Positions 9,990 to 54,360 are shown, counted from the stretch's first letter. The stretch: 64,000 bases of DNA from a plasmid (GCF_056712565.1 NZ_JBWXXM010000003.1); one strand, 5' to 3'. Made by a program: numbers and translations. Notes: generated by a model from the sequence alone, not told the origin.

Positions 9990-10510
9990 TTGACATAGTC
10001 GCAGTTTTGGTGAACGAATCACAGACAAAGATGCCATGCACCAGGCTGTTGTTCAGTATGCAGAGCGGGCCGCAGAGAAACTACGTGGGGAGCGTCAGTA
10101 TTGCCGGCAGGTGACGACATTTGTACGGACATCCCCCTGAACCCTGTTACAGCAATGCCGCTGTGGAAAAGCTTTCATTACCCACACAGGACAGCCGGGA
10201 CATTATTGCCGCCGCATGCAGAGCCTTAAACCATGTCTGGCGTGAAGGGTACCGCTATATGAAGGCAGGAGTCATGCTGGCTGATTTCACACCATCGGGT
10301 ATAGCGCAGCCGGGATTATTTGATGAAATCCAGCCCCGTAAAAACAGTGAAAAGTTAATGAAAACACTCGATGAACTGAACCAGTCGGGAAAAGGGAAAG
10401 TGTGGTTTGCGGGGCGAGGAACCGCCCCTGAATGGCAAATGAAACGGGAAATGTTGAGTCAGTGTTATACAACTAAATGGCGAGATATTCCCCTGGCCAG
10501 GCTGGGTTAG
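9990..10510 (+). pseudogene. umuC: umuC/mucB/impB-family (error-prone polymerase Pol V subunit) 3' fragment, frameshifted
   Basis: Frame 1 ...AVVQYAERAAEKLRGERQYCRQVTTFVRTSP* then shifted frame ...PTQDSRDIIAAACRALNHVWREGYRYMKAGVMLADF...WQMKREMLSQCYTTKWRDIP, matching the conserved UmuC C-terminus; 5' part missing next to IS21 remnant. Confidence 0.6.
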
Positions 10511-10689
10511 TTCAGTCATCTCCGAACATATTTTCAGCGTTTCTTCTGGTCTGGTCTTCACCGTCATTTCTCGACAGACTCTGCTCTGTAAGGGGAGTAC
10601 TGCAATCCACAGACGTATGGAGACCAGATTGTTTTTCCAGTAATTCAATCAATTTCTTTTCAACCGAAAAAGCAGGTAATGACTCCAAC

Positions 10690-12657: not shown

Positions 12658-13484
12658 TGATGCAATCTGCAGGCATTGTCGTTAATGATGTTACTGTCAC
12701 CTGGCGTAACGGGCACACAGCACTGCGCGATGCATCCTTCACAGTACCAGGCGGATCTATTGCCGCTCTGGTTGGGGTAAACGGTTCCGGAAAATCGACG
12801 TTGTTTAAAGCGATTATGGGATTTGTGCGTCTGACCAGCGGGAAGATATCTGTTCTGGGTATTCCCACACGACAGGCGCTACAGAAAAACCTGGTTGCCT
12901 ACGTCCCTCAGTCAGAAGAGGTTGACTGGTCATTTCCTGTACTGGTGGAAGATGTGGTGATGATGGGCCGCTATGGGCATATGGGTATGTTGCGTATCGC
13001 CAAAAAGAGGGATCGTCAGATTGTCACCGATGCGCTGGAACGTGTCGATATGGTGGATTTTCGCCATCGACAAATCGGCGAGCTTTCCGGTGGACAAAAG
13101 AAACGCGTCTTTCTGGCGAGAGCGATTGCACAGCAGGGTGATGTGATCCTGCTGGATGAACCTTTTACCGGCGTTGATGTGAAAACCGAAGCGAAAATCA
13201 TCAGCCTGTTGAGGGAGTTACGCGCGGAAGGCAAAACGATGCTTGTCTCAACGCACAATCTCGGATCCGTCACGACATTTTGCGATTATACGGTCATGGT
13301 CAAAGGCACCGTCCTGGCAAGCGGGCCGACAGACACCACTTTTACAGCCGAGAACCTGGAGCTGGCTTTTAGCGGCGTACTGCGCCATGTCACACTTAAC
13401 GGCTCGGAAGAAAGCATTATTACTGACGATGAACGCCCTTTTGTGGCACATCGACCGTCAGCGGTGCAGAGGGAAGAAAGATGA
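12657..13484 (+). CDS. sitB: SitB, ABC transporter ATP-binding protein
   Basis: Walker [13 protein letters not shown] signature LSGGQKKR, Walker B ILLDEP. Confidence 0.9.
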
Positions 13485-15192: not shown

Positions 15193-15659
15193 CAGAACAC
15201 TCGGCCAGCAACATCCGCTTATTGGCGATGCGCTTGAACGAATAATGCACAGACTTATGATTCTGATAAGTTTTGTTGCCAGAGAGTTGCTGCGGACTGG
15301 ATAGCAAGTAATGTCGATTCTCAGGGGTAGCAAACAGCGCAGTAAAATGAGGGAAGTAGTGGCAAAACATAGAGAAAATTGGGGGGCGAGGGCCAGTGAT
15401 GTAAAAAACCACGCTAAGAGTTTAATTAATTGTTTGTATTGAAGTTTAATGATCTTAACTCACCCTTAAGAATATCTTCCGGTAACGAAGACGTATAATG
15501 CCCCAGCATATTTATATGGCTATGTATCAGCAGCGATAATCTTGCCGGATGCTACTCCTCAGGAGTTTCTCCCGATTTGCGAAGATGTGACAACGCCTCC
15601 TGCATGTAAAGTGTGTTTCACAGCACAACCGCATTGGTCACCAGCCCCAGAGCACCTAG

Positions 15660-16094
15660 TTGATCTTCCTGCCCTTAACGGTAGCTGAAGATGACTGGGC
15701 TGGATGGAAAATCCTGCATGGTGCATTGGGAGAGCAGATAGAATTGGTTGGCGACGATCTGTTTGTGACCAACGTAAAGTATATTCAGCGCGGCATTGAC
15801 GAAAACCTTGCCAATTCAGCATTGATTAAACTCAACCAGATTGGTTCCCTGAGTGAAACCTTTGATGCGGTACAACTTTGCCATGACAACAACTGGGGCA
15901 CCTTTATCTCACACCGCAGTGGTGAGACAGTGGACAGCTTTATCGCCGATATGACAGTTGCAATGCGCGCAGGTCATCTCAAAACGGGAGCTCCATGCCG
16001 GGGTGAGCGTATTGAAAAATATAACCAGCTTATGAGAATTGAGGATGAACTGGGTTCATCGGCGCAATTTGCCGGAAAGTCTGCCTTTAAATGA
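15660..16094 (+). pseudogene. eno: enolase (eno) 3' fragment
   Basis: ...[104 protein letters not shown]... matches enolase C-terminal third; N-terminal two thirds absent. Confidence 0.8.
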
Positions 16095-37760: not shown

Positions 37761-38375
37761 GATTATCAGCGTGAGACTACGATTCCATTAATGCCTGCCA
37801 GTGAGTGTGTGGAACATATCTTGGCCAGTGGCTTGGTCTGTGATGTGCTGCGTATACCGGGTGAACCGCCCCGCCGCTTGTTTGACCGCTATATTCTGCG
37901 GGAGTTTTCTTGGAGGCACGGGATGAAATCCGCAGCATGGCGGATGCCCTGGCAAAAATCCGGAAATGATGACGATGGCGGGGAAAATCCCCGCCTTTTT
38001 CCTGCCGGTCCCCGGACAGAGCACAAAGGAAGTCGCCGCCGGCTCCGCTTTACCCGGCCATGCGGAGCATGGCCTTGTGGGGGTTCAGTTATGTGGACGT
38101 CGAGTCGTGTGCGGGCTGTGCCGTGCCTCCATCTTAGCCGGGCTGGCGTTGATGCAAGCAACTGTCTTAATGGGAGGCGGTTATCTGAAAAAAGTACGGG
38201 ATAATATTATGGAATCGCCCATCTCAAGCAAAAAACTGACTCGCTTCGATACTACGCTGACAGGCTGTTTTGAGCGAGATATCTCTCGTGTCGGGCATCG
38301 ACATTTTAAATGATTCTAAATAATATGAGCAGGGTCAGTCTTATTAAAGATTAAAACACCGGATAACAAGTTTTA

Positions 38376-38957
38376 TTGATTATGGATGAAGAGAAAACTC
38401 GTGCTGAAGTGGCACACATAGAATTTATTTCATATGGTACGTCTCGAATTTTTGATAGGCGTATGAGATCCTTAGACTGGAAGCGTAAGGTTGTCACCTT
38501 CCTTGGGGTCTTTGTTCCACTGATGATAGGTTGTGCAGTTTTATCATTCGGACTTGAAGCTCCATTTCTGCCGCTTTGCATCACAATTGCCGGTGTGGCA
38601 AGTATCATGCAATTGGGGTTCTCGCTGTGGTCTTTGGTTTCCGGATGGGATCGCTCATATAGTGATTGCATGGCTTCCGTTAAGGAAAATACAGCCATTT
38701 ATAACCTAGCTGGTAGTGTTCGCAAGAAAATAGGTAAGCTTGACGAAGCCAAATTGGAAATTTTGATAGACGATTTGACGGAAAAATTTGAGCGAAGGGA
38801 GCAGGAAGACTTAACTTTGTGTGTGAGTGATAAAGAACTTCGTTATGCAAACCGTATGTCCTGTTTCTACTTCAAAAAAAAATGCCATATTTGTAATGTC
38901 GTTCCCCTAACTTTGAAACCGGGAAAATGTGTTTGTGATGGTTGTGGGAAATTTTAA
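38376..38957 (+). CDS. hypothetical membrane protein (193 aa): two TM helices, C-terminal Cys cluster
   Basis: TM segments VVTFLGVFVPLMIGCAVLSFGL and LPLCITIAGVASIMQLGFSLWSLV; C-terminal CHICN...KCVCDGCG; AT-rich. Confidence 0.5.
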   Translation: MIMDEEKTRAEVAHIEFISYGTSRIFDRRMRSLDWKRKVVTFLGVFVPLMIGCAVLSFGLEAPFLPLCITIAGVASIMQLGFSLWSLVSGWDRSYSDCMASVKENTAIYNLAGSVRKKIGKLDEAKLEILIDDLTEKFERREQEDLTLCVSDKELRYANRMSCFYFKKKCHICNVVPLTLKPGKCVCDGCGKF

Positions 38958-38969
38958 CAAGGAGAACAT

Positions 38970-39182
38970 ATGAGTAGTGCAAAAATTCTTAACGCTTACT
39001 TCGAGGCTTCTGAAGAAGATCGAAAGGAGTTCCTACGGGTTCTTAGTCATTTTTATAAGGATAACCGAAGAGTACCTCTGCAAGAGGGCATGGAGAGCTT
39101 TGCCGTCAATGAAAGCATCCGTAAATCGCAGTCAATTAACTTTGCCCCTATGCAAGGTGGGTGTCCACTCTGCGGCAAGTAA
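38970..39182 (+). CDS. hypothetical small protein (70 aa) with C-terminal CPLCGK
   Basis: Strong RBS AAGGAGAACATATG 12 nt after upstream stop, suggesting translational coupling with 38376-38957. Confidence 0.5.
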   Translation: MSSAKILNAYFEASEEDRKEFLRVLSHFYKDNRRVPLQEGMESFAVNESIRKSQSINFAPMQGGCPLCGK

Positions 39183-39379
39183 CGACCAAAGCCGCTTGAC
39201 TAGCGGCTTGATAGATTTCTTTATATTGTAACTAGCATCTTTACATCCTGTTAAAAAAGTGGCTATTGCCCGCTATCTTGCAATTCTCCGTATTTGGTAC
39301 AAAAACAGCCGAAAGCTGCACTATCAGCAGCTATGAGCAGCGGCCCCACTGACATCGCGGATGCTTTGTCCGTGGGAGG

Positions 39380-40650
<1,271 letters not shown>

Positions 40651-40815
40651 TTTACCCGCTCAGATTTCGCGGTCTCACCCTCCAACTCCCGCCAGCCGTG
40701 TGTGTCAGGCTGCGGCTTCCCTTGCGCCCTTTGCATCCCCGCCTTATCGCCCGGCTTTTATGGAGGCACGGCACAGCCCGGTGTCGCGGAATATGTGAAC
40801 AACGGAGGAAATCCC

Positions 40816-41241
40816 ATGCAGTATGCGAAACCTGTCACTCTGAATGTTGAAGAGTGCGACCGTCTGTCTTTTCTGCCTTACCTGTTTGGCAACGATTTTC
40901 TGTATGCCGAAGCATATGTGTACGCGCTGGCGCAAAAAATGATGCCGGAATATCAGGGAGGCTTCTGGCACTTCATCCGCCTGCCGGACGGTGGCGGTTA
41001 CATGATGCCGGATGGCGACCGTTTTCATCTGGTTAACGGTGAAAACTGGTTTGACCGCACGGTCAGTGCCGATGCCGCAGGCATCATTCTGACTTCCCTT
41101 GTGATTAACCGCCAGTTGTGGCTGTACCACGACAGCGGTAACGCAGGGCTGACACACCTGTACCGGATGCGTGATGCGCAGTTGTGGAGCCACATCGAAT
41201 TTCACCCCGAATGTAACGCGATTTACGCGGCGCTGGACTGA
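40816..41241 (+). CDS. klcA: KlcA/ArdB-family antirestriction protein
   Basis: 141 aa; pattern [13 protein letters not shown]...[22 protein letters not shown]...[10 protein letters not shown] matches KlcA/ArdB family; RBS GGAGG. Confidence 0.7.
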
Positions 41242-41330: not shown

Positions 41331-41702
41331 GTGCCGGACAGTGAATGCGTTTTTGCCGTGGTGCTGACCCGTGGGAATGTGCGCCATATGGCTCAGGACT
41401 GGAACCTGTCAGACGATGAGCTGGAAACCGTCATGCAGCGGCTGGACGATGCTTTTGTATATGGCGCATGTGACAGAGTTGTTTCCGATATTGTCAATGA
41501 ACTGATGGAGGAAAAGCGCGTAAACCGCCTTGTAACAGTCCCTGCGGTGCTGCTGGAAAAAGTGATGGTGATGGCTGGTAGTGAAATTTATCGCCTCCAT
41601 GCTGTCGGGAGCGAGAACGGGGGCGACGGTGACGCATTTGTCAGGGAAGAACGTGAGATTATGCGGGTGATGCGTCAGGCGCTGGACGGGGAGAACGGGT
41701 AA
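41331..41702 (+). CDS. hypothetical leading-region protein
   Basis: 123 aa ORF; start uncertain (GTG at 41331 or internal ATG). Confidence 0.4.
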   Translation: MPDSECVFAVVLTRGNVRHMAQDWNLSDDELETVMQRLDDAFVYGACDRVVSDIVNELMEEKRVNRLVTVPAVLLEKVMVMAGSEIYRLHAVGSENGGDGDAFVREEREIMRVMRQALDGENG

Positions 41703-41884: not shown

Positions 41885-42094
41885 AACAGGTGATACAGGG
41901 CAGGCGGTGGAGGCCGCCTGTCAGCCCGCGCGAACCCCCTGGCAGGCTGACGCCTGCCGGAAGGGAAGCGGGCCACGCTGACGCGTCGCCCGTTACCCTT
42001 CCCGTTAGTGATGTGTCCGGAATGTTTTTTCTGATGTTATTTTTCTGTGGTTACCGTGTTTGTTATTGTTCTTCTTCTTTTTCCTCTTCCTCTT

Positions 42095-42650
42095 CTTTCC
42101 GTTCCTCTCCTGTTTATGGCTTTTCCGGGCGTCCCCCTGGCGGGGCGGGCTGTCGTGAACGGAGCCAGCGGAGCTGTCTCCGCCCTGGCGGGCTTCCATC
42201 CCTGACGCGAAACCATGGCTTGCAGCGACCGTTCCGGTCGCGCCGCCTCTGTCGCGCCGTGGCCTGCGCTCCCGGCATCCCGGCAAAAGGCGCCGGAATG
42301 TAAGGAGCAACGCCGTTTCGCAAACCGCGCTTCACGTCGTTGCGGCGGGTCCCTGCTCATTGCCTGCCAAGTGCCACACACCCGTATGAGTCCCTGTCGC
42401 CGGGGGCTGAGACAGCCACAACCTGCCGCACTGACTGTCCAGGGTAAATGAACAGCCCACAAAATTTTTTACCCAGAACCCGGTAAAAAATTTTGCGTTC
42501 TGCCCAGGACAGGTGCGTCAGGCCGTGGCAGTGATGCCCCTTGCGGCGAAGGTTCTCAAACGGGTGAAGTTCATACCACAGGGAATACAGCAGCAGGTTC
42601 CCGCGAAACGTCAAAACCGCGGCTCCCGAAACTCAACGGGTGATGTTCTT
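42095..42650. repeat. Frpo-like leading-region repeat (single-strand promoter/ssi-like element), copy 1
   Basis: ~550-bp GC-rich block CCTTTTCCGGGCGTCCCCCTGGCGGGGCGGGCTGTCGTGAACGGAGCCAGCGGAGCTGTCTCCGCCCTGGCGGGCTTCC... ending ...CAAAACCGCGGCTCCCGAAACTCAA, recurring 3 times, each upstream of a leading-region gene and preceded by a polypyrimidine tract. Confidence 0.65.
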
Positions 42651-42876
42651 TAAAAATCAGGATTTATTTCAGGCTCCGGCAATACGCATTTATTTGTTCT
42701 GTCAGTCATCCGGCTGGCAGGTAATGAGAACGCAGGAACAGAAGGAGGAAAACACCGGAAAGCGTCAGATGCAGATATGAAAAAAGCAGGTCAGGGACCT
42801 GCTTAATCCACGCCGTAGAAATCGCCGCAATCGATTTTCACGGCTTCACTAACCTGTGTCATAAGGAGTTTCATTT

Positions 42877-43107
42877 ATGACAGTAAGTATTGTTTCACCT
42901 TCCGCAGCGGCTGTAAAGCCCCGCCGTCATCCCCGTTTCAGACGCGAAGACATCCCCGCGCCGGAAATTGACCCCGTGCTGAAAGCATTCGGGCGACACA
43001 TAGCCCGGAGTTTTCACCGGGGACGTGGTGTACACATCCCCGCCATGAAAAACACGGCTTTCGGGCAGGTGCTCCGCACACTTGAACTGAAACGCGCTTT
43101 TAACTGA
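42877..43107 (+). CDS. hypothetical leading-region protein (76 aa)
   Basis: ORF immediately downstream of Frpo-like repeat 1. Confidence 0.45.
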   Translation: MTVSIVSPSAAAVKPRRHPRFRREDIPAPEIDPVLKAFGRHIARSFHRGRGVHIPAMKNTAFGQVLRTLELKRAFN

Positions 43108-43158
43108 TGAGGTGAGCCGCCCCGCGAGGGGCGGCAACAGACGGAAGGAGAACATTTT

Positions 43159-44520
43159 ATGACATTAGCAGCAATCACCATGACCGCCCCGGAAGCCGCC
43201 AGCCCTGTGCAGATGTACCGCGCGACCTACTCACCGGATGACAACAAACTGCGCCTGTATGCTGCGTCACGTCTTGACCCGGAGACGTATAAAAAAGTGC
43301 ATGATGCCGGTTTTCGCTGGGCACCAAAACAGGCGCTGTTTGTGGCTCCAGCCTGGACACCGGGCCGGGAAGACGTGCTCCTCTCACTTGCCGGAGAGAT
43401 TGAGGATGAAGACAGCACGCTCGCTGAACGTCAGGAAGCACGGGCGGAGCGGTTTACCGGATACAGCGGAAAGCGGGCCAGTGAATCCGCACAGGCACTT
43501 GATGAAGTGGAAAGACTGGCCGCGATGATCCCGCCCGGTCAGCCCATTCTTGTGGGGCATCACAGCGAACGCCGCGCCCGTCGTGATGCGCAGCGTATTG
43601 AAAACGGCATGAAACGTGCCGTGATGCTCGTTGAACGTGCGGAATACTGGGAAGAGCGGGCGCGGTCGGCACTGCTTCACGCGAAGTATAAAGAACGTCC
43701 GGACGTTCGCTGGCGTCGTATCAAAAAAATCGAAGCTGATTTGCGCAAGGCTGAAAAGACCATCGCGCAGTCGCAGAAATATCTGACGATATGGCGGGCT
43801 GAATCGCTGGATCTGAATATGGCAAAACTCATCAGTAGTCATGACCGTATCAGTGCCTGTTTCCCGCTGGATACGTATCCGCGCCCGGCAGAAAAAAGCC
43901 AGTATGAAGGAAGTCGATCGTTATGGTCGGCCCTGGATGATGACATCATCACCACGGAGCAGGCCCGCGAAATTGCGATCCGCTGTCATAAACGGCAGAT
44001 TCAGCATCAGCAACGCTGGGTTAACCACTATCAGAACCGCCTGATCTATGAGCGTGCCATGCTGGACGAAAGCGGCGGCGTGGTTACCCGGACACAGGAT
44101 TTTGAGCCGGGCGGACAGGTTTTCAGCCGGGGCGAGTGGCTGACCATCATCCGCGTGAACAAAAGCAACGGGACGGTGAGTTCAGTCACAACGCCGAATT
44201 ACAGTTTTCTCGGGTACAGTGGCACGATGAAAGTGACGCCCGATCGCATTACGGACTACAAAGCACCATCGGCAGAAGAGGCTGCCGTCGCCAGTCAGGC
44301 CGCTAAGCGTCCGCCTGTTGTCAACTATCCGGGAGAAGGTTTCCGGGAAATGACAAAGGCACAGTGGGCTGCCCTGCCCCGGGACTGTAAGGCCGTGCGC
44401 AGTGTGGCAGAGGCAGAAGACCACGGGGCATATCGTTACCGCCGCACAATGGACAATAATTTCCGCCTGGTGAATGTGTATATCACCGACATGAAGATTA
44501 CGGAAATCCCACAGAAATAA
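43159..44520 (+). CDS. conserved leading-region protein of unknown function (453 aa)
   Basis: Long ORF with strong RBS GGAGAACATTTTATG; no domain recognised. Confidence 0.6.
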   Translation: MTLAAITMTAPEAASPVQMYRATYSPDDNKLRLYAASRLDPETYKKVHDAGFRWAPKQALFVAPAWTPGREDVLLSLAGEIEDEDSTLAERQEARAERFTGYSGKRASESAQALDEVERLAAMIPPGQPILVGHHSERRARRDAQRIENGMKRAVMLVERAEYWEERARSALLHAKYKERPDVRWRRIKKIEADLRKAEKTIAQSQKYLTIWRAESLDLNMAKLISSHDRISACFPLDTYPRPAEKSQYEGSRSLWSALDDDIITTEQAREIAIRCHKRQIQHQQRWVNHYQNRLIYERAMLDESGGVVTRTQDFEPGGQVFSRGEWLTIIRVNKSNGTVSSVTTPNYSFLGYSGTMKVTPDRITDYKAPSAEEAAVASQAAKRPPVVNYPGEGFREMTKAQWAALPRDCKAVRSVAEAEDHGAYRYRRTMDNNFRLVNVYITDMKITEIPQK

Positions 44521-44567
44521 GGTATATCCTCCCGGGAAAATCCCCGGGGGATGACGGAGATAATGAC

Positions 44568-45131
44568 ATGTACAGTCAGTTAAGAGAACGTATCCGGCTG
44601 ATGCGCGCAAGGCTGGATAACGCCGCGCCGGTTGCTGAAATCCGGGCTGAATCTCAGCTTTTTGTGACTCCTGCCCCGGTCTGTGATCGCCTGGTGACGC
44701 TGGCGGGGATCAGCAACCGTGATCACATTCTGGAACCCTCTGCCGGCACCGGGGCCATACTGCGGGCGATTAGGGATACCGCGCCGGTAGCCATGTGTGA
44801 TGCGGTGGAAATCAACAGCGGGCTGGTCCGGTATCTGCGGGAAAATTTTAACGGTGTCAGGGTTCAGTGTGGCGACTTCATGGAATGGCAGCCGGTGCAG
44901 TATTACAGCCGGGTTATCATGAATCCGCCGTTCAGCCACGGGCAGGATATCCGGCATATCCTGCGGGCCTTTTCCCTGTTGCGTCCGGGTGGCGTGCTGG
45001 TCGCCGTCTGTCTCAACGGGCCACGCCAGCAGGAGAAGCTGTTACCGTTTTCTGACGTCCGCGAGGAGCTGCCGCGCGGCACATTTGCTTATACCGATGT
45101 CCCGACGATGATTATTCGTCTGCGTGCCTGA
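44568..45131 (+). CDS. putative orphan DNA adenine methyltransferase
   Basis: SAM-binding LEPSAGTGAIL and catalytic NPPF motif; no adjacent restriction endonuclease gene. Confidence 0.65.
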   Translation: MYSQLRERIRLMRARLDNAAPVAEIRAESQLFVTPAPVCDRLVTLAGISNRDHILEPSAGTGAILRAIRDTAPVAMCDAVEINSGLVRYLRENFNGVRVQCGDFMEWQPVQYYSRVIMNPPFSHGQDIRHILRAFSLLRPGGVLVAVCLNGPRQQEKLLPFSDVREELPRGTFAYTDVPTMIIRLRA

Positions 45132-45354
45132 AGACTCCGGGCAGGCGGGAGGATAAATGCTCGTCTGCCCGCGCCGGGAAAAGACCGCGCGCCGGTGGCG
45201 CTGAAAGGGGCCGCGCTCACGCGCCGCCCCTTTCATTACGCGGAAATTCTGCTGTGGGCTTCTGTCTTTTCAGATCTGTCATTTGTCTGTTACTGATGAT
45301 GTTCCTGCTACTGCTACTGTTTTTCTTTTTTCTGCTGCTCTGATTACTGTCTGT

Positions 45355-45900
45355 CTTGTTCTTCTTCTGCCTGTGCCTTTTCCGGGCGTCCCCCTGGCGG
45401 GGCGGGCTGTCGTGAACGGAGCCAGCGGAGCTGTCTCCGCCCTGGCGGGCTTCCATCCCTGACGCAAAACCCCTGGCTTGCAGCGACTGTTCCGGTCGCG
45501 CGCCTCTGTCGCGCCGTGGCCTGCGCTCCTGGCATCCCGGCAAAAGGCCGCCGGGATGTAAGGCGCAACGCCGTTTCGCAAACCGCGCTTCACGTCGTTG
45601 CGGCGGGTCCCTGCCCGTTGTTATGTCCGGTGCCATTCACCTGTTTAAGCCCCTGTCGCCGGGGGCAAAGACAGCCACAACCGTCTCCGCCAGTCCAGGG
45701 GTGAAATGCACATCCCGCAAAACTTTTTGCCCAAAAGCAGGCAAAAACTTTTGCGGTCTGCCCCCGGACAGTCGTTTCCTGCCGTGGCAGTGATGCCCCT
45801 TGCGGCGAAGGTTTTCAAAAAGGTGATGGTGAATACCGGAGGGAACAAAAGGCAGGTCCCCGCAAAACGTCAAAACCGCGGCTCCCGAAACTCAAAAGAT
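45355..45900. repeat. Frpo-like leading-region repeat, copy 2
   Basis: Same repeat family as 42095-42650; immediately upstream of ssb. Confidence 0.65.
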
Positions 45901-45936
45901 GATGGGGCTGAAAACATCAACAGAAGGAGACACATC

Positions 45937-46765
<829 letters not shown>

Positions 46766-46828
46766 GAGAGGTGCCGGACGGGAATGCGTCCGGCAGACAT
46801 ACAACCATCCCGGTCAAAGGAGAAATAT

Positions 46829-48787
46829 ATGTCGGTTACAGAGTCTAAGACAAAAACGGAGCGTAAATCCAGCCGTAAACCGTCAAAAGAGCAGGAGACT
46901 GCCCTGTCTGCCCTGCTGGCGCAGACGGCGGAAGTGAGCGTGCCGCTGGCCTCACTGATTAAATCACCACTGAATGTGCGCACGGTGCCGTATTCTGCGG
47001 AGTCTGTCAGCGAACTGGCGGAGTCCATTAAGGGCGTTGGCCTGTTGCAGAATCTGGTCGTGCATACCCTGCCTGGTGACCGTTACGGTGTCGCCGCAGG
47101 TGGTCGCCGACTGGCTGCACTCAACATGCTGGCAGAGCGTGGCATCATTCCGGCTGACTGGCCTGTCCGTGTGAAGGTCATTCCGCAGGAGCTGGCGACG
47201 GCGGCATCAATGACTGAAAACGGTCATCGTCGGGATATGCACCCTGCTGAACAGATTGCCGGATTCCGCGCAATGGCGCAGGAAGGCAAAACACCTGCAC
47301 AAATCGGTGATTTGCTGGGCTATTCACCCCGCTATGTCCAGCGAATGCTGAAACTGGCTGACCTTGCGCCTGTCATCCTCGATGCGCTGGCAGAAGACCG
47401 CATCACTACCGAACACTGTCAGGCGCTGGCGCTGGAGAACGACACCGCGCGTCAGGTACAGGTGTTTGAAGCCGCCTGTCAGTCGGGATGGGGCGGAAAA
47501 CCGGATGTGCGGGTTATCCGCAATCTGATTACGGAAAGTGAAGTGGCGGTGGCGGGGAACAGTAAATTCCGCTTCGTGGGGGCTGATGCTTTCTCACCTG
47601 ACGAACTGCGTACTGATTTGTTCAGCGATGACGGGGACGGTTATGTCGACCGCGTGGCGCTCGATGCTGCCCTGCTGGAAAAACTCCAGGCTGTCGCTGA
47701 ACACCTTCGGGAAGCCGAAGGCTGGGAATGGTGCGCCGGACGCATGGAGCCTGTCGGTGAGTGCCGTGAGGATGCCGGAACATACCGCTGTCTGCCGGAG
47801 CCGGACGCGGTGCTGACGGAGGCGGAAGAAGAACGCCTGAACGAACTGATGACGCGTTACGACGCGCTGGAAAACCAGTGTGAGGAATCCGACCTGCTGG
47901 AAGCAGAAATGAAGCTGATGCGCTGCATGGCGAAGGTCAGAGCGTGGACGCCGGAGATGCGTACCGGAAGCGGTGTGGTGGTGTCCTGGCGTTACGGTAA
48001 TGTGTGTGTCCAGCGTGGTGTGCAGTTGCGCAGCGAGGATGACGCGGCTGACGACGCTGACCGCACGGAACAGGTGCAGGAGAAAGCATCAGTGGAGGAA
48101 ATCAGTCTGCCACTGCTGACGAAAATGTCTTCCGAACGCACGCTGGCAGTCCAGGCGGCACTCATGCAGCAACCGGACAAATCCCTGGCACTGCTGGCAT
48201 GGACGCTCTGCCTGAATGTGTTTGGCAGCGGAGCGTACAGTAAACCAGCACAAATCAGCCTGGAATGTAAACATTATTCGCTGACCAGCGATGCGCCGTC
48301 AGGGAAGGAAGGTGCCGCGTTCATGGCGATGATGGCAGAAAAAGCCCGTCTTGCGGCCCTGTTACCGGAGGGATGGTCACGGGACATGACGACGTTCCTG
48401 TCACTCAGTCAGGAGGTGCTGTTATCCCTGCTCAGTTTCTGCACCGCGTGCAGCATCCACGGCGTTCAGACCCGCGAGTGTGGTCACACGTCACGCAGCC
48501 CGCTGGACACGCTGGAGAGCGCCATCGGTTTTCACATGCGTGACTGGTGGCAGCCGACAAAAGCAAACTTCTTCGGACACCTGAAAAAGCCGCAGATTAT
48601 CGCAGCTCTGAATGATGCCGGACTGTCCGGTGCCGCACGGGATGCAGAGAAGATGAAGAAAGGTGATGCGGCTGAACATGCAGAGCACCATATGAAAGAC
48701 AACCGCTGGGTGCCTGGCTGGATGTGTGCACCACATCCACAGACGGATACCACTGAACGCACCGATAACCTGGCTGATGCCGCCTGA
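46829..48787 (+). CDS. ParB/Srx-like nuclease domain protein (leading region)
   Basis: N-terminal ParB-like region (…LLQNLVVHTLPGDRYGVAAGGRRLAAL…); start MSVTESK with AAGGAG RBS inside track ORF 46784-48787. Confidence 0.7.
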   Translation: MSVTESKTKTERKSSRKPSKEQETALSALLAQTAEVSVPLASLIKSPLNVRTVPYSAESVSELAESIKGVGLLQNLVVHTLPGDRYGVAAGGRRLAALNMLAERGIIPADWPVRVKVIPQELATAASMTENGHRRDMHPAEQIAGFRAMAQEGKTPAQIGDLLGYSPRYVQRMLKLADLAPVILDALAEDRITTEHCQALALENDTARQVQVFEAACQSGWGGKPDVRVIRNLITESEVAVAGNSKFRFVGADAFSPDELRTDLFSDDGDGYVDRVALDAALLEKLQAVAEHLREAEGWEWCAGRMEPVGECREDAGTYRCLPEPDAVLTEAEEERLNELMTRYDALENQCEESDLLEAEMKLMRCMAKVRAWTPEMRTGSGVVVSWRYGNVCVQRGVQLRSEDDAADDADRTEQVQEKASVEEISLPLLTKMSSERTLAVQAALMQQPDKSLALLAWTLCLNVFGSGAYSKPAQISLECKHYSLTSDAPSGKEGAAFMAMMAEKARLAALLPEGWSRDMTTFLSLSQEVLLSLLSFCTACSIHGVQTRECGHTSRSPLDTLESAIGFHMRDWWQPTKANFFGHLKKPQIIAALNDAGLSGAARDAEKMKKGDAAEHAEHHMKDNRWVPGWMCAPHPQTDTTERTDNLADAA

Positions 48788-48838
48788 TGAACAACCACAC
48801 CGCCCCGCCGGAGACGGGGCAGCAGCAAGGGAGATACC

Positions 48839-49276
48839 GTGATGAAAACTGAACTGACCCTGAATGTATTACAGACCATGAACGCACAGGAATATGAAGA
48901 TATCAGGGCTGCCGGAAGTGATGAACGCCGTGAGCTGACACACGCCGTGATGCGGGAACTGGATGCGCCGGACAACTGGACGATGAATGGCGAGTACGGC
49001 AGCGAGTTCGGCGGCTTTTTCCCCGTCCAGGTCCGTTTCACGCCTGCCCACGAACGTTTTCACCTGGCGTTATGTTCACCGGGTGATGTCTCCCAGGTCT
49101 GGGTGCTGGTTCTGGTGAATGCCGGTGGTGAGCCGTTTGCGGTGGTTCAGGTACAGCGGCGGTTTGCACCGGAAGCAGTCAGCCATTCACTGGCACTGGC
49201 GGCGTCACTGGATGCGCAGGGGTACAGCGTTAACGACATCATCCATATCCTGATGGCGGAAGGAGGTCAGGTATGA
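48839..49276 (+). CDS. psiB: PsiB, plasmid SOS inhibition protein B
   Basis: [53 protein letters not shown]... recognised as PsiB. Confidence 0.9.
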
Positions 49277-49992
49277 ACGCACGTTCACGGGCACTGGTTC
49301 CCCTCAGCACAGAGCAACAGGCCGCATGGCGGGCGGTGGCGGAGACGGAAAAACGCCGCCATCAGGGAAACACGCTGGCGGAATATCCGTATGCGGGAGC
49401 ATTTTTCCGCTGTCTGAACGGAAGCCGCCGGATTTCGCTGTCTGACCTGCGATTTTTCATGCCGTCCCTGACCGCAGAAGAACTGCACGGCAACCGTCTT
49501 CAGTGGCTGTGTGCCATCGATGTGCTGATTGAAACACAGGGCGAGGTCTGCCTCCTTCCCCTTCCCGGCGATGCAGCAGAACGCTTGTTCCCGTCGGTGC
49601 GGTTTCGTGTCAGGGAACGCAGTCGCCATAAATCCGCGCTGGTCATGCAGAAGTACAGCCGCCAGCAAGCGAGGGAGGCAGAGCAGAAAGCCCGTGCGTA
49701 CCAGGTGCTGGTTGCTCAGGCTGAAATCGAACTGGCATTTCATTCACCGGAAACAGTCGGAAGCTGGCATGCACGCTGGAGTGACCGGGTGGCAGAGCAT
49801 GACCTGGAACCCCTGTTCTGGCAGTGGGGCGAGCGTTTTCCGTCACTGGCCGGAATGGAACGCTGGCAGTGGCAGGATATGCCATTCTGGCAGGTTATCG
49901 CGGAAGCCAGTCTGGCAGCCAGAGAGGCCGGTCATGCTGTCCGTGAGATGGAGCGGTGGATGGTGCCGAACAAACTCCGGGAGGCAGCGTGA
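49273..49992 (+). CDS. psiA: PsiA, plasmid SOS inhibition protein A
   Basis: 239 aa translationally coupled to psiB, F-like order psiB-psiA. Confidence 0.85.
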
Positions 49993-50267
49993 TGCGGCAA
50001 TAATCACACGGATTACCCGTGAACTGGTTGAACGACCAGATTATTTTCAGGGAAAGTGAGTGTGGTCAGCGTGCAGGGATATGAGCTATGATGTGCCCGG
50101 CGCTTGAGGCTTTCTGCCTCATGACGTGAAGGTGGTTTGTTACCGTGTTGTGTGGCAGAAGGCAGAAAGCCCCGTAGTTAATTTTTCATTAACCCACGAG
50201 GCCCCCTGTATGTCTGATCAACAACAGTATGGCCTCTTACCGTGCTTAATGCAAGGAGGAGTAAACC

Positions 50268-50429
50268 ATGAAACTACCGGGAAACGCCCTTATCTGGTGC
50301 GTATTAATCGTGTGCTGCACGTTGTTAATATTCACACTCCTGACCCGGAATCGTCTGTGCGAAGTCCGGCTGAAGGACGGATACAGGGAGGTTACGGCAA
50401 GTTTGGCTTACGAATCCAGCGGTAAGTAG
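50268..50429 (+). CDS. hok: Hok/Gef-family type I toxin (flmA/hok-like)
   Basis: [53 protein letters not shown]; overlapping upstream ORF in another frame (50126-50425) consistent with mok. Confidence 0.8.
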
Positions 50430-50744
50430 CAACCTGGAGGCGGGCGCAGGCCCGCCTTTTCAGGGCTGATGCTGGTCTGACTGCACTGAAGCGCCTTTAT
50501 AAAGGGGCTGCTGGTTCGCCGGTGGCCCCTTTCTCCTTGCTGGCATTGTGCGGGCATGAACAACCAGACTGCCAGGAAGGCCGTTTCCCTCCGGGAACGG
50601 GGATGAACGTGCGCCTGCGGCGCCCGTTCTTTTCCCCCGCCTTCTCTGTTTATGACCTGTCAGAAATCACATCACCTTCCCTTTGATTATTCTCTTTTTC
50701 CTCCTGTTCTGACTCTGATTACTGCTGCCCTGATTATTGTCTGT

Positions 50745-51300
50745 TTTGTTGTTCTCCTGCTTATGCCTTTTCCGGGCGTCCCCCTGGCGGGGCGGGCTGT
50801 CGTGAACGGAGCCAGCGGAGCTGTCTCCGCCCTGGCGGGCTTCCATCCCTGACGCGAAACCCCGGGCTTGCAGCGACCGTTCCGGTCGCGCCGCCTCTGT
50901 CGCGCCGTGGCCTGCGCTCCCGGCATCCCGGCAAAAGGCCGCCGGGATGTAAGGGGCAACGCCGTTTCGCAAACCGCGCTTCACGTCGTTGCGGCGGGTT
51001 CCTGCCCGTTGTTGTGTCCGGTGCCATTCACCTGTTTAAGCCCCTGTCGCCGGGAGCTGATACAGCCACAACCTGCCGCACTGACTGTCCAGGGTAAATG
51101 AACAGCCCACAAAATTTTTTACCCAAAACCCGGTAAAAAATTTTGCGTTCTGCCCAGGACAGGTGCGTCAGGCCGTGGCAGTGATGCCCCTTGCGGCGAA
51201 GGTTCTCAAACAGGTGATGGTGAATACCGGAGGGAACAAACGGCAGGTCCCCGCAAAACGTCAAAACCGCGGCTCCCGAAACTCAACAGATGATGGGGGC
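50745..51300. repeat. Frpo-like leading-region repeat, copy 3
   Basis: Third copy of the repeat seen at 42095 and 45355. Confidence 0.65.
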
Positions 51301-51327
51301 TGAAAACCAGAGAGAGGAGAAAGCAGG

Positions 51328-51615
51328 ATGAGTACCCGAAATATCCACGTTAACATCGCGTCGTACACGCTTCTTGTTGCCGGGAAGAAAAAATACACCG
51401 GGGAAGAGTGGGACGTCCTGGAATTCAGCAGCCTGACTGAGCTGAAAAAATATCGCAAAAGCCACCCGGAAAAGATGGCCTTCAGCTATAGCTATGCGCT
51501 CAGCCGGGGTGTGGATACGCAGTTCCGCCATATCAACATTGCGGAAGCCGATCACTTCAAACAGTTCCTGCGTCAGATTAAGCGTACCGGCCTCGATATC
51601 CGGGCTATCTGCTGA
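51328..51615 (+). CDS. hypothetical leading-region protein (95 aa)
   Basis: ORF immediately downstream of repeat copy 3, RBS GAGAGGAG. Confidence 0.5.
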   Translation: MSTRNIHVNIASYTLLVAGKKKYTGEEWDVLEFSSLTELKKYRKSHPEKMAFSYSYALSRGVDTQFRHINIAEADHFKQFLRQIKRTGLDIRAIC

Positions 51616-51733: not shown

Positions 51734-52555
51734 ATGCGATTAGCTTCCCGTTTTGGTCGGTATAATTCCATCCGCCGTGAACGTCCTTTAACGGATGATG
51801 AATTAATGCAGTTTGTGCCTTCGGTGTTTTCCGGTGATAAACATGAGTCCCGGAGTGAACGTTATACGTATATTTCAACAATCAATATCATCAATAAGTT
51901 ACGTGATGAAGGTTTCCAGCCATTCTTTGCCTGTCAGAGTCGGGTTCGTGATTTGGGACGTCGCGAATACAGTAAACATATGTTACGTCTTCGCAGGGAA
52001 GGGCATATTAACGGGCAGGAAGTTCCTGAAATTATCCTGCTTAATTCACATGATGGTTCATCCAGTTATCAGATGATCCCCGGAATTTTTCGTTTTGTCT
52101 GCACAAATGGCCTGGTGTGCGGAAATAATTTTGGCGAAATCCGCGTTCCACATAAAGGTGATATTGTCGGGCAGGTTATCGAGGGAGCGTATGAAGTGCT
52201 CGGTGTCTTTGATAAGGTCACTGATAATATGGAGGCGATGAAAGAAATTCATCTTAACAGTGACGAGCAACATTTATTTGGCAGAGCTGCACTGATGGTC
52301 AGGTATGAAGATGAAAATAAAACGCCGGTGACGCCTGAACAGATAATTACTCCCCGTCGTCGGGAGGATAAACAGAACGATCTCTGGACAACCTGGCAGC
52401 GGGTTCAGGAGAATATGATAAAAGGTGGATTATCGGGGCGAAGTGCCTCCGGGAAAAATACCAGGACAAGAGCCATTACAGGTATTGATGGTGATATAAG
52501 AATCAACAAAGCATTATGGATGATTGCCGAACAGTTCAGGGAGTGGAAGTCGTGA
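51734..52555 (+). CDS. conserved leading-region protein of unknown function (~273 aa; possibly DUF932-like)
   Basis: MRLASRFGRYNSIRRERPLTDDELMQFVPSVF...LLNSHDGSSSYQMIPGIFRFVCTNGLVCG...; family assignment from memory only. Confidence 0.5.
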   Translation: MRLASRFGRYNSIRRERPLTDDELMQFVPSVFSGDKHESRSERYTYISTINIINKLRDEGFQPFFACQSRVRDLGRREYSKHMLRLRREGHINGQEVPEIILLNSHDGSSSYQMIPGIFRFVCTNGLVCGNNFGEIRVPHKGDIVGQVIEGAYEVLGVFDKVTDNMEAMKEIHLNSDEQHLFGRAALMVRYEDENKTPVTPEQIITPRRREDKQNDLWTTWQRVQENMIKGGLSGRSASGKNTRTRAITGIDGDIRINKALWMIAEQFREWKS

Positions 52556-53399: not shown

Positions 53400-53770
53400 T
53401 CACTCCACAAAAAGGCTCAACAGGTTGGTGGTTCTCACCACCAAAAGCACCACACCCCACGCAAAAACAAGTTTTTGCTGATTTTTCTTTATAAATAGAG
53501 TGTTATGAAAAATTAGTTTCTCTTACTCTCTTTATGATATTTAAAAAAGCGGTATCGGCGCGGCTACAACAACGCGCCGACACCGTTTTGTAGGGGTGGT
53601 ACTGACTATTTTTATAAAAAACATTATTTTATATTAGGGGGGGCTGCTAGCGGCGCGGTGTGTTTTTTTATAGGATACCGCTAGGGGCGCTGCTAGCGGT
53701 GCGTCCCTGTTTGCATTATGAATTTTAGTGTTTCGAAATTAACTTTATTTTATGTTCAAAAAAGGTAATC
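53400..53770. other. oriT: origin of transfer (oriT), F-like, with nic region
   Basis: AAAAGCACCACACCCCAC (complement GTGGGGTGTGGTGCTTTT, F-type nic motif) at ~53443-53460; AT-rich tracts and inverted repeats (GCTGCTAGCGGCGCGGTG / CGCTGCTAGCGGTGCG) between gene X and traM. Confidence 0.8.
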
Positions 53771-54158: not shown

Positions 54159-54279
54159 AAGAAATTTGACTTCGTTCAAATATCAGAGTTTTTATGATTT
54201 AAAAAGGTGACAGTACGAAAGATAATTAGTATATTAATTACGTGGTTAATGCCACGTTAAAATTTGAAATTAAAAATCG

Positions 54280-54360
54280 CCGATGCAGGGAGACGTGAAC
54301 TCCCTGCATCGACTGTCCATAGAATCCTTTGTGAGGAGGTTCCTATGTATCCGATGGATC
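54280..54360 (-). ncRNA. finP: FinP antisense RNA (approximate position, antisense to traJ leader/start)
   Basis: By F-like organisation FinP is antisense to traJ 5' UTR and start codon (traJ ATG ~54345); not verified by structure. Confidence 0.35.

Follow-up and report, generated by a model that had tools for sequence, protein, structure and literature searches.

Three Direct Repeats in the Leading Region of an IncF Plasmid as Probable Class-1 (Frpo/ssi-Type) Single-Stranded DNA Promoters

The window, i.e., the whole 64,000-nucleotide stretch of plasmid DNA which was analysed, contains three direct repeats, each about 545 bp long; BLAST of every copy against all 64 kb detected no fourth. Number and size agree with a first-pass annotation, which had proposed three repeats of about 550 bp, and its coordinates hold to within about 10–40 bp of the pairwise BLAST spans. 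The repeats, the genes around them and the origin of transfer are located as follows:

42101/42106–42645: repeat R1 (pairwise BLAST spans)
45329/45358–45915: repeat R2 (pairwise BLAST spans)
50719/50753–51307: repeat R3 (pairwise BLAST spans)
42781–42882, minus strand: antisense RNA AS-pc01, in the gap between R1 and the 42877 ORF (Rfam RF02875, full length, 105 bits; gathering threshold 79)
42877–43107, plus strand: uncharacterised gene, 76 aa, first after R1 (hypothetical protein in identical RefSeq records)
43159–44520, plus strand: ydbA, DUF3560 protein of 453 aa (PF12083, E = 4.9e-37; named ydbA in OZ026786)
44568–45131, plus strand: ydcA, orphan DNA-methyltransferase-like protein of 187 aa (Pfam methyltransferase domains; PADLOC mad2, 2e-20)
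45937–46569, plus strand: ssb, plasmid SSB (translations, DNA alignment)
51328–51615, plus strand: ygeA homologue, first gene after R3 (97% identity to F YgeA)
51734–52555, plus strand: ygeB homologue, DUF932 (98% identity to the F protein; PF06067, E = 6e-52)
53444–53460, minus strand: oriT nick-site sequence (exact match to GTGGGGTGTGGTGCTTT, found also at the equivalent place in F)

The distances from start to start are 3257 bp and then 5391 bp. Within a core of about 545 columns the identities are 81.7% (R1/R2), 89.3% (R1/R3) and 88.8% (R2/R3); the copies had been called near-identical, with pairwise alignment suggested as a check, and this wording was too strong, since they are 82–89% identical overall. 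Repeats of this length and likeness cannot have arisen by chance. Alignment of the copies showed a mosaic: a left block of about 230 bp has 96–97% identity between copies, and the apex of the hairpin described below exists in two alleles, R1 and R3 agreeing at 125 of 126 positions and R2 matching them at only 91–92 of 127. The description of the repeats as GC-rich is correct (0.60–0.68, as compared with about 0.55 in the flanks).

Each repeat precedes a leading-region gene, as had been stated: the gap to the start codon is about 20 nt for R2 (ssb, ATG at 45937), about 20 nt for R3 (ATG at 51328) and about 230 nt for R1 (ATG at 42877). AS-pc01, which lies in the last of these gaps, overlaps the 42877 ORF at its ribosome binding site and start codon; the antisense RNA has a promoter-like site (42917–42889, minus strand), a terminator (42804–42784, minus strand) and three stem-loops (z = −4.0). 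For the product of 42877–43107, the sole Pfam match, to an HU-like family, was below threshold (E = 7e-4). ydcA also matches models of type II and orphan methyltransferases. In ssb, a deletion of 1 nt near the end causes a frameshift, by which the C-terminal tip ...DDIPF is replaced by a tail of about 33 aa; the CDS is absent from the table of the identical record, which omits pseudogenes. Deletion of ygeA in F reduced the transconjugant frequency to 3.9% (PMC9849209).

The known genes listed in the first-pass annotation are indeed present, namely the klcA/ArdB-type antirestriction gene (PF03230, E = 1.8e-26), the methyltransferase-like gene (PADLOC mad2), psiB and ssb. Its set of uncharacterised ORFs stands for 42877–43107 (hypothetical) and 43159–44520 (DUF3560); it does not stand for 51328–51615 and 51734–52555, which correspond to F YgeA and YgeB (97% and 98%, respectively). 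For an ORF which had been given as 41331–41702, the identical RefSeq record has a start at 41241 and the name DUF1380 family protein; no significant hit came up in Pfam and NCBIfam scans. The literature makes it reasonable to regard the remaining leading-region ORFs, a priori, as candidate anti-defence genes.

For assignment to a family, the F ssiD/Frpo sequence given in Supplementary Table 2 of PMC11541004 was used as query. It matched R2 with 96.6% over 351 nt (45559–45907, minus strand), R3 with 87.6% (50950–51299, minus strand) and R1, the copy most diverged from ssiD, with 79.7% (42301–42634, minus strand); about 340–355 nt were aligned in the three repeats, with E = 1e-78 or better. All matches lie on the minus strand and all downstream genes on the plus strand, i.e., the genes are templated by the transferred strand (T-strand). 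The latter is the minus strand, since this carries GTGGGGTGTGGTGCTTT, which we take to be the F nick site; traJ/FinP follows at 54240–54351. The distance from R2 to R3 is 5391 bp, that from Frpo2 to Frpo1 in F is 5390 bp, and the genes downstream are the same.

A single-strand hairpin had been claimed, and folding was the check proposed for it. On the T-strand, each copy forms one long imperfect stem-loop of about 320 nt (about 328 nt in the family criterion), defined by ssiD homology and fold:

42315–42632, minus strand: R1 hairpin, about 320 nt, upstream of the operon 42877 ORF/ydbA/ydcA; −97.4 kcal/mol, complement −84.9, z = −7.8 (561-nt context)
45573–45891, minus strand: R2 hairpin, upstream of ssb, DUF905, parB-like gene, psiB and psiA; −91.9 kcal/mol, complement −81.3, z = −7.1
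50964–51282, minus strand: R3 hairpin, upstream of ygeA and ygeB; −99.4 kcal/mol, complement −88.9, z = −8.7

In all copies the T-strand folds better than its complement by 8–12.5 kcal/mol, with 8–9 G.T pairs in the T-strand fold vs. 2–5 in that of the complement. The hairpins are the strongest minus-strand folds between 34 and 56 kb: segments of 300 nt reach −83 to −90 kcal/mol, as compared with a mean of −43 (sd 13), and so lie beyond the published threshold of −75. Eight divergent sequences, including relatives from Serratia and an insect metagenome, were used for covariation: 94.5% of the cells were paired, as compared with 38–49% when the partners were slid, the covariation score was 0.170 (0.03–0.06 with slid partners), and compensatory changes occurred at 12 base pairs. 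None of 500 shuffles matched the observed percentage of pairing, the compensatory-change cells or the covariation score. The apical design, including a bulge of 8–10 nt on the 3' arm, is kept in ColIb-P9 ssi1–3 and in Salmonella relatives. The hairpin claim is therefore upheld by strong z-scores, strand asymmetry and covariation in divergent relatives; homology, strand, position, fold, asymmetry and covariation are established for the three copies.

Frpo elements of conjugative plasmids are DNA hairpins which switch on the first genes while the DNA is still single-stranded in the new host (PMC9849209, PMC12672017, PMC11541004). The F and IncI1 copies have been shown to support, as single-stranded DNA, transcription or priming that depends on RNA polymerase, and to give early transient expression in transconjugants (PMC9849209, PMC12672017), transcription start sites of class 1 were mapped by 5' RACE (PMC12672017), and deletion of Frpo1 or Frpo2 in F led to loss of early protein production (PMC9849209). 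The Frpo-type element is already known, and its identification in the first-pass annotation was correct; ssiD homology, strand and position with respect to the nick site, asymmetric folding, covariation and the function published for the F copies all agree with it. With a probability of about 0.9, the three repeats are class-1 (Frpo/ssi-type) single-stranded DNA promoters of the IncF leading region; we infer their activity in this plasmid.

Upon conjugation, the minus strand would be nicked at about 53451 and its 5' end would enter the recipient first, proceeding toward lower coordinates, so that the repeats would follow the leading end at distances of about 2.2, 7.6 and 10.9 kb. While the complement has yet to be synthesised, each should fold upon itself into the imperfect hairpin of about 320 nt, whose paired stem would mimic duplex promoter DNA; host RNA polymerase could start there and read the same strand into the plus-sense genes. 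R3 would then drive ygeA and ygeB, R2 would drive ssb, DUF905, the parB-like gene, psiB and psiA, and R1 the 42877 ORF, ydbA and ydcA. Synthesis of the complementary strand would destroy the hairpins and turn the promoters off, and at R1, AS-pc01, transcribable only from duplex DNA, could then silence leftover mRNA. Recruitment of RNA polymerase, early expression, shut-off in the duplex and priming by the transcript are carried over from what is published for the F and IncI1 copies; that all three copies are active, and the logic of AS-pc01 timing, we likewise infer.

No convincing promoter boxes could be placed. In a position-weight scan for −35/−10 pairs on the physical strand, scores did not exceed 7.2 bits, and across the family no pair kept its position. 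From the apical folds, a candidate was derived by hand, consisting of an nTGGCA-like hexamer atop the 3' arm, 17 nt, and TnCAT(T/C) in the conserved bulge; it is the sole position-conserved candidate, but was among the six best pairs of the scan in only 2 of 9 sequences, with at most 2.5 bits, and its placement is to be regarded as putative. No sigma-70 consensus promoter was found on the plus strand in or just 3' of any repeat, in a scan which detects near-consensus sites only and is for this reason a weak test. The distance of about 230 nt from R1 to its first gene, together with the divergence of R1, was counted against the promoter reading.

Other explanations of the repeats were considered. 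They might have been selected mainly as ssi sites, for priming and timing complementary-strand synthesis, with mRNA as a by-product: the original definition of Frpo was that of an ssi site, with an RNA which serves in vitro as primer for DNA synthesis (review PMC7690428), according to a 2026 preprint conversion events which are early and sensitive to rifampicin occur in vivo close to ssp1/Frpo promoters, and three sites across 9 kb would provide three priming points. However, R2 and R3 end about 20 nt before a ribosome binding site and start codon, the genes have the sole orientation which the T-strand can template, and the deletions in F abolish early protein production (PMC9849209), so that priming as the main role appears unlikely; as both roles are compatible, the difference is one of emphasis only. 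That the hairpin acts as the folded 5' leader of an mRNA, in RNA and not in DNA, is highly improbable. Transcription from upstream would give an RNA with a similar inverted repeat, but the sense (mRNA-like) strand folds 8–12.5 kcal/mol worse, the conserved T-strand G.T pairs becoming C.A mismatches there (DNA parameters), and neither an upstream duplex promoter in the consensus scan nor a matching Rfam leader family was found.

Recombination appears to have left traces. F Frpo2, which looks, on sequence comparison, like an R1/R2 recombinant, is R1-like up to alignment column ~575 and R2-like beyond, as expected from a crossover deleting the 3.26-kb R1–R2 cassette; Frpo1 of F combines R3 flanks with an R2-type core, as in a conversion patch; plasmids carry anywhere from 1 to 7 copies of the repeat; and a similar R1/R3 hybrid repeat occurs in an IncI plasmid without its leading region (PMC3817090). 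Nevertheless, it is very unlikely that the repeats are kept mainly as homologous-recombination scaffolds for gain, loss or exchange of leading-region cassettes, since recombination follows from having repeats and leaves the fold, the strand asymmetry and the compensatory changes unexplained. Moreover, mixed arm types cost 5–11 kcal/mol, and it is therefore the structure that selection maintains. Hardly credible is the notion that the repeats encode small proteins, or that they are what remains of a small mobile element. RefSeq lists a hypothetical protein of 135 aa within R2 (45217–45624, minus strand; B6V57_RS26490) and another in F, but there was no match to a Pfam family, as was also the case for a minus-strand ORF of 139 aa listed by RefSeq for an identical record, and the reading frame is shifted between copies by single-base indels at A2 columns 239, 266, 314, 389, 462 and 528, in line with the earlier remark that ORFs inside the repeats are artefacts. 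As to a mobile element, on looking through the repeat output and the alignments we noticed neither terminal inverted repeats nor target duplications, and the repeats have a fixed orientation, always directly 5' of leading-region genes.

The promoter model leaves about 195 nt of each repeat and the pyrimidine tract, which are outside the hairpin, unexplained:

42120–42314, minus strand (also 45377–45572 and 50767–50963): conserved extension of about 195 nt, upstream in gene sense, 3' on the T-strand
42020–42119, plus strand (also ~45277–45376 and ~50667–50766): T/C-rich tract, purine-rich on the T-strand (from composition)

The extension folds into a number of small hairpins rich in GC. This block and the base of the large hairpin's 3' arm (A2 columns 145–375) make up the most conserved part, with 96–98% identity among five F-type copies, and a piece of 57 nt (42217–42273) is identical in 56 of 57 positions, counted by eye, upstream of ColIb-P9 ssi3. 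The tract had been noted as polypyrimidine, which is confirmed by 72–87% T+C in the 60 nt before each core, compared with a background of 0.49 ± 0.06 (100-nt windows); that of R1 is the pyrimidine maximum of the whole window. Its composition is conserved, whereas its sequence is only about 50–64% identical between copies. Each repeat could perhaps be a module of three parts (T-strand, 3' to 5'): a purine-only spacer, the small-hairpin block and the promoter hairpin, the first two serving as an insulator on the single-stranded template. This would fit the conservation of the 195-nt block and its 57-nt piece in IncI1, a tract conserved in composition and not in sequence, and the roadblock role already reported for an unrelated class-2 hairpin, although we consider it rather unlikely. 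If true, the insulator would keep RNA polymerase from an upstream operon, or the converting replisome, from unfolding the next hairpin early, and a U/C-rich transcript on a purine template would make a weak RNA:DNA hybrid, favouring release.

Among known systems, single-stranded DNA promoters of class 2 (ssp2/"Frpo3", upstream of klcA/ardB) and class 3 (upstream of a methylase) have been described (PMC12672017; bioRxiv 10.64898/2026.01.09.698686; bioRxiv 10.1101/2025.04.03.647016). In these too, an early operon of the leading region is headed by a long hairpin of the T-strand, but they have no sequence similarity to R1–R3. A class-2 promoter upstream of klcA is present in the window, split by a 2.43-kb insertion. 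ColIb-P9 (IncI1) has ssi1, ssi2 and ssi3, reportedly from the work of Bates et al. in 1999, i.e., three copies which are dispersed and stand each at the head of an operon in the leading region, with the same apical stem, loop and 3'-arm bulge. Only about 80–120 nt of the hairpin, the apex, can be aligned with R1–R3 (76–80%); in their lower stems the sequences are unrelated. The IncI1 ssi copies were studied by 5' RACE (PMC12672017). ColIb-P9 has only a weak pyrimidine tract.

Another close counterpart is F, whose Frpo1 is said to be the ssiD of Masai and Arai (1997). Both F copies have 80–97% identity to the repeats, the same strand, spacing and downstream genes, and a hairpin of about 320 nt. 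Frpo2 was described by Couturier et al. 2023 (PMC9849209), and the Frpo copies are also known as ssp1a/ssp1b, class-1 single-stranded DNA promoters. F has two copies, to which this plasmid adds R1 with a three-gene cassette absent from F. The apex alleles are swapped, R2 at the Frpo2 position carrying the Frpo1 allele and R3 at the Frpo1 position the Frpo2 allele, and F Frpo2 folds 7.5–15 kcal/mol less stably than the copies of the window. In a sample of 60 plasmids out of at least 5,000 matching records, three copies were the commonest number (37 of 60), and this is the usual layout for such plasmids.

The repeats belong to the leading region of a conjugative IncF (IncFIB, MOBF) plasmid that is very common; over 12 kb around them the sequence is 100% identical to many plasmids of E. 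coli and Salmonella. The sequence GTGGGGTGTGGTGCTTT, which we take to be the nick-site sequence of F, has a single exact occurrence (53444-53460, minus strand), which falls between the SLT gene and traM, and was found at the equivalent place in F. Thus, the minus strand would enter first, with its 5' end leading, toward lower coordinates; it is also the template for all leading genes on the plus strand.

Repeats, predicted hairpins, RNA elements (Rfam) and genes (annotation of an identical RefSeq record) of the leading region
Before R1: klcA-type antirestriction protein, DUF1380 protein, 60-aa ORF
~42101-42645: repeat R1; hairpin 42315-42632, minus strand
42781-42882, minus strand: AS-pc01 antisense RNA (RF02875)
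After R1: 76-aa ORF, DUF3560 protein (43159-44520), methyltransferase
~45358-45915: repeat R2; hairpin ~45573-45891, minus strand
After R2: DUF905 protein (46532-46765), parB-like protein, psiB, hok
50098-50270: sok
~50719-51307: repeat R3; hairpin ~50964-51282, minus strand
After R3: 95-aa ORF, DUF932 protein (51734-52555), SLT gene, traM
54240-54351: traJ 5' UTR and FinP

The window contains three direct repeats and no further copies, with start-to-start spacings of 3257 bp (R1-R2) and 5391 bp (R2-R3). The first-pass annotation had called them near-identical; the three copies stand, but pairwise core alignments gave only 81.7–89.3%. The repeat is a mosaic, in which a left block of ~230 bp shows 96–97% identity between copies and the hairpin apex occurs as two alleles, one in R1 and R3 (125/126 shared) and the other in R2. 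Their GC-richness (0.60–0.68) was confirmed, as were a polypyrimidine tract before each copy (a pyrimidine share of 72–87% in 60 nt, where the window background is 0.49 ± 0.06) and a leading-region gene behind each, i.e., the 42877 ORF for R1, ssb (45937) for R2 and the 51328 ORF for R3. From repeat end to start codon there are ~20 nt for R2 and R3 and ~230 nt for R1.

Reference Frpo/ssi sequences were obtained from Supplementary Table 2 of Samuel et al. (PMC11541004). The ssiD element of F, which is the original Frpo, matched the minus strand of R2 with 96.6% over 351 nt, that of R3 with 87.6% and that of R1 with 79.7%, in accordance with the proposed Frpo-like nature of the repeats; an Rfam search returned no family covering them. 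F possesses two copies 5390 bp apart, before ssb and ygeA, i.e., with the same spacing as R2-R3, and the proteins following R3 are 97% and 98% identical to YgeA and YgeB of F, respectively.

Folding was scanned over 34–56 kb in sliding windows of 300 nt with DNA parameters, as in PMC12672017. R1–R3 were the strongest minus-strand folds of this region (-83 to -90 kcal/mol versus a mean of -43, sd 13). Each copy was predicted to form one long, imperfect hairpin of ~320 nt on the minus strand (z = -7.1 to -8.7), as had been supposed for the incoming single strand and in agreement with the published size of 328 nt. When trimmed to the same hairpin, the transferred strand reached -91.9 to -99.4 kcal/mol and the complementary strand was 8–12.5 kcal/mol worse; 8–9 G.T pairs of the former are C.A mismatches in the latter. 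This asymmetry argues for selection on the transferred DNA strand and against a leader acting at the RNA level. A protein-coding reading, for which the overlapping ORFs inside the repeats might be taken, is rejected on the grounds of frame-shifting indels and the lack of a family match: these ORFs, already regarded as artefacts, differ in frame between copies through single-base indels.

Covariation was determined in an alignment of the repeat family, which comprised R1–R3, Frpo1 and Frpo2 of F, and relatives from Serratia and an insect metagenome. The consensus structure has 87 predicted pairs; 94.5% of the cells were paired, against 38–49% with partners slid by 1–3 columns, changes on both sides were found at 12 pairs, and the covariation score was 0.170 versus 0.03–0.06. 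None of 500 shuffles matched the observed percentage of pairing, the compensatory-change cells or the covariation score. The apex, which is poorly aligned in this set, was folded separately in eleven sequences, and the same apical design was present in ssi1-3 of ColIb-P9 and in Salmonella relatives: a TGTCC.GGGG stem, a short helix of 3 bp, a near-perfect apical stem, and a bulge of 8–10 nt in the 3' arm with (T/C)CAT(T/C)T.

According to later summaries of Masai and Arai (1997) (PMC9849209, PMC7690428), the folded strand recruits RNA polymerase. When Frpo1 or Frpo2 of F is deleted, transconjugants no longer make the downstream proteins early on, and the Frpo promoters are turned off once the DNA has become duplex (PMC9849209); start sites of class-1 elements were mapped by 5' RACE (PMC12672017), and a preprint describes that the transcripts also help to prime complementary-strand synthesis. 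By analogy with these published F and IncI1 copies, R1–R3 would act in the same manner here. A consensus scan of the plus strand ahead of the three genes gave no ordinary sigma-70 promoter, which fits the single-strand promoter model. For the -35 and -10 boxes, a position-weight scan run on nine members of the family yielded weak and non-conserved pairs only, and manual inspection of both arms likewise gave no placement. Since the anti-CRISPR expression construct of Samuel et al. contained 289 nt of Frpo upstream of the ATG, corresponding to the upper two-thirds of the hairpin (PMC11541004), the promoter is expected in the apical part. The sole positionally conserved candidate, derived by hand and with a weak scan score, would have the -10 element within the conserved bulge of the 3' arm. 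The best -35-like hexamer, TTGACG close to the 5'-arm base, is unlikely to be the -35 box, since its pairing partner is missing from the 289-nt construct, whose sufficiency was never tested, and since the hexamer is absent from the ssi elements of ColIb-P9.

Approximately 195 nt of each repeat lie outside the hairpin; these and the basal part of the 3' arm form the best-conserved portion of the repeat. A 57-nt block (42217-42273, also in R2 and R3), including a small hairpin GCGACCG-GAA-CGGTCGC, is identical in 56/57 positions to 12893-12949 of the ColIb-P9 locus, upstream of ssi3. This is far closer than the promoter hairpins of ColIb-P9 (IncI1) and the window, which align over ~100 nt only, at 76–80%. 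Of the pyrimidine tract the composition alone is conserved, and the version at ssi3 is short and weaker; the tract is therefore not claimed as a family-wide feature. No mention of the ~195-nt block and the tract was found in the searchable literature; that they serve as an insulator on single-stranded templates is conceivable, albeit rather improbable.

A chromosomal CRISPR spacer of K. pneumoniae, given in PMC6965323 as "intergenic, 2-4 hits in same plasmid", maps to the 3' arm of Frpo-type hairpins, with 32/32 matches to the Serratia copy and 21–23 of 22–24 aligned positions in the window copies (42335-42358, 45593-45614 and 50984-51005). A second spacer, labelled "DUF3560" in the same paper, matches the 5' arm of the Serratia copy in 26/26 positions. 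Hosts thus take up spacers against the repeated leading-region element.

The copies exchange sequence with each other. In the informative columns, Frpo2 of F tracks R1 to about column 575 and then, after a single switch, R2; in Frpo1 of F, a core tracking R2 lies between flanks tracking R3. Compared with F (10000-10622 and 15390-16012 of the F locus), the apex alleles of the ssb and ygeA positions are interchanged. Because of the switch in Frpo2, the two-copy layout of F looks as if a crossover had removed the R1-R2 cassette. Folding models indicate that the arm types of the hairpin co-evolve: an in-silico chimera of R1-left and R2-right gave -86.6 kcal/mol, versus -97.4 and -91.9 for the parents, and Frpo2 of F, a hybrid of this type, was near this value and the weakest of five hairpins (-84.4 kcal/mol; 7.5–15 kcal/mol less stable than the window copies). 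Judged from these sequences, F as used in the laboratory may have arisen by deletion from the commoner layout with three copies, which left it a weakened, hybrid Frpo2.

Anti-defence roles had been suggested for the uncharacterised leading-region ORFs, which is a reasonable prior. For the ORF placed at 41331-41702, the identical RefSeq record annotates a DUF1380 family protein that begins at 41241 instead; Pfam and NCBIfam scans of this ORF were without significant match. The 60-, 76- and 95-aa ORFs gave no family above threshold in either database, and the NCBIfam scan of the uncharacterised ORFs added nothing. The methyltransferase matched DNA-methyltransferase models and was the only match of these ORFs to PADLOC defence-system models. 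A literature search yielded no functional work on these DUF families; for ygeA, a conjugation phenotype was reported in F (PMC9849209). The third operon (42877 ORF, ydbA, ydcA) possesses a bona fide class-1 hairpin, and its genes are thus good candidates for functions that act early. AS-pc01, with its own promoter-like site and terminator, sits between R1 and the 42877 ORF, the first gene after R1, and is antisense to the start codon and ribosome-binding site of this gene. Since its template is the non-transferred strand, it can be made only after duplex conversion; it would be a shut-off switch complementing the single-strand promoter.

The ssb gene (45937-46569) carries a deletion of 1 nt near 46465 relative to F, by which the C-terminal ...DDIPF tip, the protein-interaction motif of SSB, is exchanged for a tail of ~33 aa that runs into the beginning of the DUF905 gene; an ssb CDS is missing from the gene table of the identical RefSeq record, which leaves out pseudogenes. 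Upstream of klcA/ardB, F has a class-2 promoter (ssp2 or "Frpo3"), a reported conversion roadblock, whose intact element folds with -83 kcal/mol (z = -5.1). Remnants of it were found here at 38120-38143 and 40749-40772, split by an insertion of 2,430 bp (38159-40588) that encodes a transposase (ISEc32, IS110-like) besides two small ORFs; the remnant beside klcA showed no significant fold (z = +2.5). The insertion is present in ~200 plasmid records and the empty site in thousands. In this lineage, the operon of klcA, DUF1380 and the 60-aa ORF may no longer have its early promoter. An SSB lacking its interaction tip and a klcA operon that is probably without its normal single-strand control are relevant to users of such plasmids in establishment studies.

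With R3 as query, at least 5,000 plasmid records were obtained; the best 5,000 comprise 13,621 places. Among 60 records taken evenly down this ranking, 37 contained three places, 13 two, 6 one, 3 four and 1 seven. At least 3,969 records contain the R1-R2 cassette with a coverage of 80% or higher; in one of them ydbA/ydcA are named. Samuel et al. listed 13,089 Frpo homologues across 6,006 elements (PMC11541004), a 2026 paper annotated them over PLSDB, and a drawing of an IncI plasmid from 2013 has leading-region genes bounded by three Frpo-type repeats (PMC3817090). In view of this cataloguing and the 2013 drawing, the feature was already known; the first-pass observation is confirmed, its interpretation is supported, and it is a correct recognition of known biology. 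Its value consists in confirmation and detail for a common IncF lineage, and a new explanation is not needed: Frpo-type promoters let F-like and IncI plasmids express genes for SOS inhibition, SSB and anti-restriction ahead of the host reaction.
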